From NCBI GenBank assembly GCA_963738405.1, contig CAVTWJ010000019.1, positions 1-64,000 of the forward strand: DNA of 64,000 bases, written 5' to 3'. Position numbers: made by a program. How positions within the stretch are numbered: the stretch's first letter is position 1; every line of letters starts with the position of its first letter. Below are positions 28,401 to 31,400 of this stretch, one piece after another. The stretch comes from a candidate division FCPU426 bacterium. GTDB taxonomy: Bacteria > Oederibacteriota > Muellerivitia > Muellerivitales > Muellerivitaceae.

Positions 28401-31400
28401 CGAAAACCCTGAAAGCTGAAAAGATCCACCGGCCTTAAGGCGTCCCGGTCCGTGTGGTTTTCCTCCAAAATGAACATCCGCGGTTCCGGCGAGGTGTTAT
28501 GGAGGACCACCGTCGGGAAATGCGAGCTCTTGAGATTTTGTTCGGTCAAATGGTCCTGCCATTTCACCTGGGTCTCCATTGTTTCCTCGTTGATATCCAA
28601 GAGGTTGTAAAGTTCCCGGCCCCCGATGCGCAGGCGGTAGCGGCCCAGGCTTAACAAGGTCGGCAGGGACAATTCGCTCCCCGGCGGCACCGTCTTTTGC
28701 ATCTTGATATGGGGTTTGGTGGCGGGTTCGGCGGCGCAATAGAGCCTTTTGTTGACCTGGCGGAGGGAGGGGTGCACATGGAAGGTCACTTCCAGCGTAT
28801 TGAAAGCGGTGGCGTCAAAATCCACCATGCAGACCGCGCAATTTCCACGTTTGGGAACCTGTCCCAACCCCCGGACCTCATCCCGCACTCCCCGGCAATG
28901 GGGACAAAGCACATCCCAGGTTAAAATCAAAAGTCCCAAGCGGGTGGCGTTAAGAAAGGCCAGTAATAGATCCTTCTCATTCACCTTCCAATCCCTCGCC
29001 AGGGGTTTCACCCGGATGCGGTAGATGGACTCGTCCGGTTCGGTGGCCACGTAACGGACCAGCTTTTCCGCGATCTCGGCCGATGTCCCGCTTTCCACCA
29101 GCTGAATTTTAAGACCCTTTAATTTATCCATAACGGGCGGAGGCAGTTTGGCCAGGACCGGCGGCTTGAGGGCCTCGTTTTTTTGAATTGCGGTTACGAT
29201 TTCTTGAAGGGCCTTGGCATAGCCCTTTTTCATCTGCTTCAGGCCGATGTTGATCAAAAGACGGCTGATAGGGCCGCGGGGCAGGAAAGAAAGGTAGGCG
29301 TAGAGACGGCATTTGCCGGGCTCCGGTTCCTCAAAAAGATATCGGGCCCTCATGTAATAGGGCAATCCCTCGCTGTAAATACGGGCGTGGCTGAACTGCT
29401 TTCCGTATTCCCATTCCCAGGGAACCTCTTCCCAAAACATCTTTTTTCCCACGTTGACGGCAAAACCCTGCATACGGCCGTTCTTCTCGGTGAACTTCAT
29501 TTCACCCAGCCCCACCCGCTTGTTGAAAGAGGAAAGGTCGGCAATATAAGGCCACAGCTTCTCAACGGGAACCGGCAGGTCGTACTTCCAGAAAAAATGC
29601 ATGGGCTTGCCCTTTTTAAGCCATTCGGCGGGCCAGGGATATTTCTCCAGAAATTCATTCAAGGTTATGGTTTTGGAAGCAGTTTCGGTCACGGACACAG
29701 ATCCCTCTCTAGTTGGTTCTCAGAACTTCAAAAAAACCTAAAAACAAAACCAATTTGAACCGCCAAAACGCCAAGTTCGCCAAGAAAATCAAAGTTTTAT
29801 CTTTGGCTTAGACAAGATAATACGTTCCAAGCCCTTTTTTAGTGTCGGGGAATAGAAATTAATTAGCAGCCCAAGTTGAAGCCCTGATAACTTCAAATAG
29901 GTTAACACTTGGGCGCGATGTACTGGCAAGAGAGACTCAACGGCCTTTACTTCAACGATCAAGCGTTTTTGTACAAGCAAATCAATTCGAAAACCAACAT
30001 TTAATTTCACTTTCTCATAAACGAGTGGAACCGCTACTTGGCGTTCAACGCTTAAACCGCGCTGTCCAATTTCGTAGGCCAGACACGCCTCGTAAGCGCT
30101 TTCCAATAACCCCGGCCCAATGTTGAAATGCACTTTAAAGGCGGCGTCCACGACTTCTTTTGCAATTTTATCCAGCTCAATATCTGCTTCTTCAAAAGAT
30201 TTTCTCATTCGTTTCTCTTTTTCTTTTCTTGGCGAACTTGGCGTCTTGGCGGTGAAAACTTTGAGTCTTTCAGAGGTTACAGGTTAATTGTTTAGAAGTT
30301 GGTCCACTTTGGCGGCGCAAATAAAGTCGTTGTCGCTCATGCCGTTAATGGCGTGGGTATGGTATTTCACCTTGCAGGCCTTGTAGCTGACTTCCATATC
30401 GGGGTGATGGTCTTCCTTGTTCGAAAGAAAGGCCACCGCGTTAACGAAAGACATGGTCTCGTGAAAATTTTGGAAGGCATAGGTCTTGGCAATCTCCTTT
30501 CCATCGAACTCCCATCCGGGAAGCTGGGAAAGGTATCCCTTGATCATGACGATATTAAGGGGCTTGGTCCCGCCCTCGCAGGGAACACATTTTTTCTTAA
30601 GAATCTCTTCTTTAGATGGGACGGATTCGGCCATGAAAAACCTCCCTTAGCAGTCTGCAAAATTATAAATAAGCCACAAAGCAGACTGCCTATCCCAAAG
30701 ATTCCGGAGGAATCGTGGGGGTTCATTGAATGTTTACAAGCTTACTCTACGGGGAAGGATGCGGGGAAGTTACCGAAAAATCAACGGGCGGAGACCGGCA
30801 GGGGCGTGACGTTTTGGATGGATTTCGCGCTTTCCTGGCCATTCGGCGCTACCGAGGTGACGGCGAAATAATAATTTTTCCCGTTCTCCAATGGTTTGAG
30901 GGTCGCCTGCAAAACAGAAACGGGCTGGGGGGTCAGGGGCCGGAAATCTTCACCATCGTCGGAAACATAGAGCTTGAAATGGGAGCCGAGGAAAGACGGG
31001 GCCCACGTGAGAAGCGCCATGGCGTCTCCGCTTTCGGCTTTAAAGTTCAAGGGGATGGGAACCGTTTCGTTCGAATCGGCCGAGACATTTCCCCGAACCA
31101 TCTGGGAAGGCTCGCTTTCCACGCCCGAATCGGAAACCGAAGTCACCACGAAGCCGTAATCTTTCCCGGGGGCAACATTTTTCAAGGTGACCTGATTGTC
31201 GGTAATGGGGCTCGTAGATAGCCTGCGGCTGGGTTTGCCCTGGGCATCGGCCAGGTAAAGGTAATAACCCGCCACGCCCGATCCCTGCGTGGCGTCTTTG
31301 TCCCAAGTCAGGTTGAAGGCCCCGAAGCCGGTGGCCAAGTTGAGGTTCTTCGGCGCGTCGGGTTTGAGGGCTTGGGGAACAAAGGTCAGCGTGGCGTAGG

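Follow-up and report, generated by a model that had tools for sequence, protein, structure and literature searches.

A probable, undescribed nuclease-and-repeat system, made of GxxExxY genes and inverted triple-repeat arms, that would spread slowly through many bacteria

The window, a stretch of 64,000 nucleotides from one contig of a candidate division FCPU426 bacterium, hosts a GxxExxY gene enclosed by two inverted arms, each made of three short direct repeats (Table 1). The arms are 40 nt long and 88% complementary, constitute the longest inverted repeat within 1.5 kb, and pair with each other in the single-strand fold of the whole cassette (z -4.35). The inner end of the downstream arm overlaps the stop codon of the gene. 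The cassette lies between protein genes and not inside an rRNA gene, the location typical of rRNA intervening sequences, and Rfam matches were missing in the four loci checked. The window also carries a gene-less element whose predicted structure is one long hairpin (z -7.4); a 139-aa ORF spanning it (32502-32921) has no Pfam match. A ribosome-binding site built into both cassette ends was considered and discarded, being found at 13 of 33 downstream and 3 of 33 upstream ends. Two DNA sequencing runs contained 7-9% of the sequence words, no RNA run containing them was listed, and no contig ran across the cassette; joints seen in sequencing runs near 32550 correspond to other copies of the repeat.

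Table 1. Coordinates of cassettes, arms, neighbours and related elements in the window and in the rest of the genome
Feature	Position	Strand	Remarks
GxxExxY gene	29789-30208	-	139 aa, PD-(D/E)xK fold, PF13366 and TIGR04256 matches
Downstream arm of cassette	29754-29793	.	three CGCCAAG-type units, spacing 8 and 9 nt
Upstream arm of cassette	30219-30258	.	inverted partner of arm 29754-29793
Host gene 5' of cassette	30284..30634	-	pterin-4a-carbinolamine dehydratase; outside unit
Host gene 3' of cassette	27833..29698	-	DUF5939 and adenylate/guanylate cyclase domain; outside unit
Gene-less element	32526..32729	.	8/8 CACCAAG type; one nested inner arm near 32582
Empty site	58332..58334	.	3 bp, between MauE/DoxX-family gene and convergent 597-aa gene
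Second GxxExxY gene	C22:201191-201541		arms at 201152 and 201613, sequence unlike window arms
Hairpin inserts in arms	G000 C7:28368, C14:244246, C22:65474		
Hairpin inserts in arms	G000 C4:21424, C9:346882, C23:151638		
Hairpin inserts in arms	G000 C3:34817, C23:162804		L036 and L074 likewise
Orthologous junctions with gene-less elements	G000 C23:273715, C2:113702, C2:110205, C23:150710		orthologues L124-L141

The window protein matches PF13366 (E 7.6e-40, 136.4 bits, curated cut-off 22) and TIGR04256 (E 1.4e-41, 141.5 bits, curated cut-off 35). PF13366 is its sole Pfam match, and the GIY-YIG domain that marks Ssn enzymes was not found in it. The family is very large, 8,000 scored candidates having yielded 7,975 matches, and this genome has two members only, the window gene and the gene on C22. 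Both had been described by the first-pass annotation as sitting between inverted triple-repeat arms, and such arms have been located at either gene. A DUF559 gene is missing in this genome, and a search for four-helix bundles gave one match only, below cut-off. The structure model of the window protein (pLDDT 91) resembles PD-(D/E)xK folds weakly (best Z 7.8, no Foldseek E < 0.001), and no match is decisive. Solved structures searched by sequence yielded 0 matches at E 10, and a search of the Atlas gave no usable match beyond PF13366. Among 95 close homologues E36, E86, K88, Q100 and Y104 never vary and D76 hardly does, which makes up a set of catalytic-type residues (E36, D76, E86-x-K88, Q100-xxx-Y104). 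The protein recalls nucleases of the Cas4, lambda exonuclease and RecB type both in these E, D, ExK and QxxxY residues, the last of which we take to belong to that group, and in the top Foldseek rows, occupied by Cas4 and lambda exonuclease. These matches, however, are all weak and score no better than other PD-(D/E)xK folds, and only one cysteine is conserved in the 95 homologues. A junction resolvase was also considered: Hjc, at Z 6.0, scores level with many other folds, and thus is not singled out. The gene is under purifying selection, as shown by comparison with its sister in the same-genus genome G003 (pN 0.074, pS 0.73). It is AT-rich, with a GC3 of 0.42 against a genome median of 0.63 (5th percentile).

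Arms are a regular companion of the family. Applying one scoring rule to loci and random genes, with a threshold score of at least 30, inverted arms flank 66 of 72 GxxExxY loci of relatives; of 400 genes picked at random in this genome, 5 have them. The contrast originally reported was 25/30 loci versus 2/295 random genes. In 64 of the 72 loci the two arms of the locus itself rank among the top three mutual matches. The wide taxonomic range assigned to the arrangement is confirmed as well: among the best 80 of 597 matches, two of which were omitted for short flanks, 78 loci could be scored, and arms were found at 65 of them; 12 named phyla are represented, archaea included. Best-matching arm segments of opposite orientation, with CTTGGCG- or CTTTGTG-type sequences toward the gene, have been noticed in Acidobacteriota (L165, L183, L216, L225) and Bacteroidota (L163, L174); the reversal of these segments implies that arms may be flipped or doubled in some lineages.

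Arms fall into types, and types follow the protein. On a quick tree of 65 proteins, in which arm types were labelled by eye and 7 of the 72 rows omitted as unlabelled or short, the arm type changes 17 times (minimum 16, shuffled 47.4). Much of this clustering is plain inheritance, because 13 junctions are common to 2-5 genomes; but three junctions are represented within the CGCCAAG clade, and three also within one clade of the CACAGAG type. Phyla are mixed on the GxxExxY protein tree. Across phyla 28 changes are counted (minimum 12, shuffled 37.9), and a clade with support 96, including four named phyla, features CAC(A/G)GAG arms throughout. Considering whole genomes, a count of 24 arms or more is reached in 24 of the 26 that have the gene and in 1 of the 15 that lack it, kin not being independent. 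CGCGAAG arms number 12-43 in all six genomes hosting a gene of that type; none of the remaining 35 has more than 4. The association of types, in which again kin are not independent, is weak for CGCCAAG (p 0.05), moderate for CACCAAG (p 0.01) and CACAGAG (p 0.02). Taken at the level of sequence, these comparisons indicate that the arms track the nuclease protein. Genomes carry 1-6 GxxExxY matches each; the gene was found on 6 of 72,556 plasmids and on no phage.

Gene and arms are inherited as a single unit, and this unit has relocated. In one family, 67 cassette loci are distributed over up to 43 junction keys. A sister cassette, 91% identical, resides in G003 28 kb off, at the site which is 3 bp wide here; conversely, G003 has only a collapsed remnant where the window cassette lies. 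The sister pair is at least as diverged as host genes (pS 0.73 versus 0.45-0.74, with 3 of 16 host rows omitted as poorly aligned), and its split is no younger than that of the species. Cassettes are old residents, and the gene-bearing unit probably moves rarely. As stated in the first-pass annotation, junctions that hold the cassette in a relative tend to be narrow in this genome and to lack arms: 12 of 13 directly adjacent ones have no arms and measure at most 62 bp. The four gaps that it had measured at 36, 12, 8 and 19 bp are each 1 bp narrower (35, 11, 7 and 18 bp). At the presumed mutS junction the nested gene-less arms are present as described, but the gene is found in one relative instead of three. 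Because relatives in and outside the genus have the cassette there, several of the empty junctions are more likely clean losses than sites never filled. At one clean empty/filled site the alignment leaves room for a 2-nt overlap; global alignments made automatically between filled and empty sites were usable for few of 16 loci. Of the mobile unit originally envisaged, the discrete cassette found at many junctions holds; that the nuclease mobilizes it is what we infer.

The window junction (29699-30283) was compared by eye in 15 relatives having both host genes (L036-L053). A cassette was found in G045 and G021, a broken cassette in G023 and the collapsed remnant in G003. The gap is short and empty in G020 and G009, holds another gene in G007, heptamer-type arrays in G001, G002, G004, G005 and G044, CGTC-type hairpins in G006 and G041, and no visible element in G022. 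GxxExxY-type arms, heptamer arrays and CGTC-type hairpins are unrelated families, and the coexistence of all three at one junction suggests either a hotspot in common, or replacement. Among the orthologous junctions listed in Table 1, same-genus genomes often host an element whose arms are of a type common in the genome concerned and whose loop cannot be aligned, while some junctions are vacant, which suggests re-colonization or overwriting.

Gene-less elements are abundant in this genome (G000). A scan identified 113 arms, against 0, 1 and 0 in three shuffled genomes, which correspond to 42 inverted pairs (40 gene-less, 2 gene-bearing) plus 29 arms that are single or interrupted. Another 38 arms are of a second gene-less type; they were found among 45 pattern matches, with 17 pairs counted by eye. 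As many as 35 of the 42 pairs lie between co-directed genes (83% versus 73% background). Loops are partly related too: of 741 pairs of loops, 83 score above z 4 relative to shuffles, and elements on C1 and C23 align across arms and loop. The closest copies seen are 70-82% alike, one genome per species being considered, and near-identical recent copies were not observed. The flanks of the 42 pairs reveal neither target-site duplications (longest direct repeat 4.19, versus 4.11 in mismatched flanks) nor any target-site rule.

The abundant arms are of the CACCAAG (98 matches) and GCCACAGAT (31 matches) types. The arms of the two local genes are of other types, CGCCAAG at the window gene, with 5 matches in the genome, and CACAGAG at the C22 gene, with 3, two in either case being the gene's own. 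The derivation of the gene-less copies from these two genes, proposed in the first-pass annotation, is thus not supported: the local types account for 3 and 1 further matches only, and the abundant gene-less copies match sister genes in relatives. No gene of the CACCAAG or GCCACAGAT type was found in the assembly, which is 90.7% complete, and no remnant of the gene in the loops of its gene-less elements. The abundant families would be orphans of sister cassettes lost or unassembled, or be served by an enzyme of relaxed specificity.

Homology between gene-less and gene-bearing copies was found at family level, in two relatives. In G038, all 13 gene-less elements examined, selected by spacing from the arm list and 311-502 bp long, match the inner arm of the gene-bearing copy at 72-82%, and their flanks are unrelated. 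In G032 one of seven gene-less elements contains a piece of the GxxExxY gene (E 7.5e-7). The alignments indicate that gene-less copies descend, at family level, from gene-bearing units, and have spread as arm-plus-loop pieces. As in REPINs, the replicating unit is the inverted doublet with its spacer, homologous arm-plus-loop units being found at unrelated sites.

The closest parallel is with known systems pairing an enzyme with dispersed repeats. According to the available text of Chenal et al. 2025 (PMC11893778), Ssn/SRM systems feature a small single-domain nuclease gene with cognate hairpin-forming repeats at both sides, many gene-less copies, a wide distribution and co-evolving pairs. GxxExxY genes, too, are flanked by a cognate repeat dispersed without the gene, though the types abundant here differ. 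Ssn is a GIY-YIG enzyme in that text, and each repeat is a short hairpin, whereas here the enzyme is of the PD-(D/E)xK type, an arm consists of three direct 7-nt units and pairs only with the opposite arm; cleavage of the Ssn kind is predicted here by analogy. REPINs, RAYTs and TIRtrons, as presented in excerpts of PMC3116915 and PMC3733652, share the spreading unit, a pair of inverted repeats separated by a variable spacer; a cognate enzyme gene of low copy number, mostly inherited and flanked by the repeats, clustering and nesting are further likenesses (the same excerpts and parts of PMC5581495). Differently from REPs, the arms are direct-repeat triplets and not palindromes, and lack GTAG or CGTC tags; the gene between them is PF13366, with no HUH/Y1 domain. 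As to MITEs and insertion sequences, gene-bearing and internally deleted gene-less forms have common ends in G038 and G032, but neither a DDE transposase, nor target duplications, nor, with one genome per species, a burst of near-identical copies was found. MITEs are dealt with in a passage of PMC3733652.

The gene-less architecture was already published in 2009. In Geobacter metallireducens, 21 elements in which two rows of three tandem repeats face each other across a spacer of variable length have been called 'class 2 global regulator binding sites' (consensus TCTCCGTS[Y], the reverse complement being a CACGGAG-type unit), and read by Aklujkar et al. as sites for a regulator or IHF/HU (PMC2700814, available part). 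In the same part no link of these sites to a nuclease gene or to mobility was found, and its table S5 names no gene inside its widest pair (PMC2700814). The GxxExxY family is listed as 'Unknown', with multiple transfers, in the accessible portion of PMC3424549, and is mentioned once as a possible cas4 in that of PMC8934634; non-random insertion of multicopy sequences is described in extracts of PMC2996986. The passage at hand of a 2026 preprint does not treat the family. No paper linking the family to repeats was found in a literature search that covered few subscription papers.

By analogy, gene, arms and gene-less copies are best explained as a PD-(D/E)xK counterpart of the Ssn/SRM and RAYT/REPIN systems. 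The nuclease would cut or move the arms. The protein would bind the three-unit arms when these are folded back in single-stranded DNA, and make a nick beside them. We know of no covalent strand-transfer chemistry in the GxxExxY family, and the process would therefore be completed by host repair, giving rise to ragged-ended new copies devoid of target duplications, to nesting and to clean losses. Such a course, from binding and nicking to gains, nesting and losses through repair, is slightly more likely than not. Gene-bearing units would rarely move and persist at gene junctions; gene-less copies would turn over faster, and outlast their gene. The broader notion of a transposase-free selfish DNA, a 0.5-kb unit in which a 130-residue nuclease, the product of its only gene, recognizes its own phased arms and drives copying of gene-bearing and gene-less forms via host repair, many nuclease-arm pairs differing in specificity and newer arm types displacing or overwriting older ones at a given junction, is somewhat less than an even bet.

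The long residence at common junctions, the purifying selection on the gene, its rarity on plasmids and absence from phages could also denote a domesticated host system, in which the nuclease recognizes the arms but serves to restrict or steer incoming or replicating single-stranded DNA, and the spread of arms is a by-product or is due to other enzymes. In the text available, SsnA modulates transformation in Neisseria, and transposition is not reported (PMC11893778); RAYTs are likewise low-copy and vertical in the sections at hand of PMC5581495. Yet, the up to 43 junctions in one family, the broken copies, the 1-6 matches per genome, the low GC3 and the mixed phyla all accord with a selfish past. 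We regard domestication, which overlaps with the favoured explanation, as the main alternative, though a rather unlikely one. Arms might otherwise be ends like those of MITEs, mobilized in trans by a genuine transposase, the nuclease gene being a passenger. The genome has three Y1_Tnp genes and orphan arm families, and the terminal inverted layout resembles that of MITEs. The three genes, however, are away from the cassette and from the listed arms, and the one in the window has different short inverted ends of its own. Moreover, the arms are not tracked by Y1 transposases: a Y1_Tnp match is missing from five genomes rich in arms, of which three are 98-99% complete, and arms are few in 10 of 30 Y1-positive genomes, Y1 being the only transposase family compared. 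Target duplications are missing, and a passenger would not retain type-specific arms. All this makes mobilization in trans improbable.

The excess of pairs between co-directed genes, and the finding of unrelated hairpin families at the same junction, as though a hairpin were favoured there, would suit elements acting in RNA, which like intervening sequences would influence how transcripts are processed or how stable they are at operon junctions, with the protein as an RNA nuclease. The excess over background is small, however, and the 131 gene-bearing stems show no G-U strand bias (142 sense versus 129 antisense, p 0.47); the pairs of this genome show only a weak one (33 versus 20, one row misregistered). 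Rfam matches are missing in the four loci, and relatives manage without the hairpin. A function in RNA has accordingly little probability. Lastly, a row of three direct repeats in phase would be a fitting target for a DNA-binding protein, and paired repeats as sites for a global host regulator or IHF/HU, with the gene incidental, are the published hypothesis (PMC2700814, in the part available). But the arm sequence differs between same-genus genomes at one and the same junction, it follows the nuclease, and elements are copied as a whole, loops included; regulator sites are a most improbable explanation.

If the nuclease-and-repeat reading is true, a very large uncharacterized family gains a specific substrate that is cheap to test, its own flanking arms. 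Intergenic repeats read until now as regulator sites would be accounted for, and the nuclease folds paired with dispersed repeats, HUH and GIY-YIG so far, would become three. Should cleavage be type-specific, the family would represent a natural repertoire of nucleases that are both very small and sequence-specific.

Other repeats accompany the arms. Several arms are interrupted at fixed places by hairpin inserts of ~26-33 bp, and a longer type of ~70 bp is found as well; an identical 26-bp insert occurs in the arms of G003. The inserts look like hitch-hiking mini-elements aimed at arms, and presumably resemble the small dispersed repeats of cyanobacteria. Five single arms (G000 C9:26075, C12:79061, C14:239805, C22:50780 and C22:43105) lie inside a longer shared repeat, and probably belong to another repeated segment. 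G036, a 100% complete genome, has no GxxExxY match, yet hosts eleven arm matches, ten of the CACGAAG type, two arm matches being less than 350 bp from a Y1_Tnp match. The Y1_Tnp gene of the window (20830-21990, match 21603-21932) encodes ~320 aa and lies between short inverted ends starting with GGGGTCAG, an organization similar to that of the TIRtrons described in the available text of PMC3733652; the other two Y1_Tnp genes are both on C12. A CGTC-type repeat family is found at 20 places in G000, and two of its members, 428 bp apart (C9:12096-12524), may enclose a gene.
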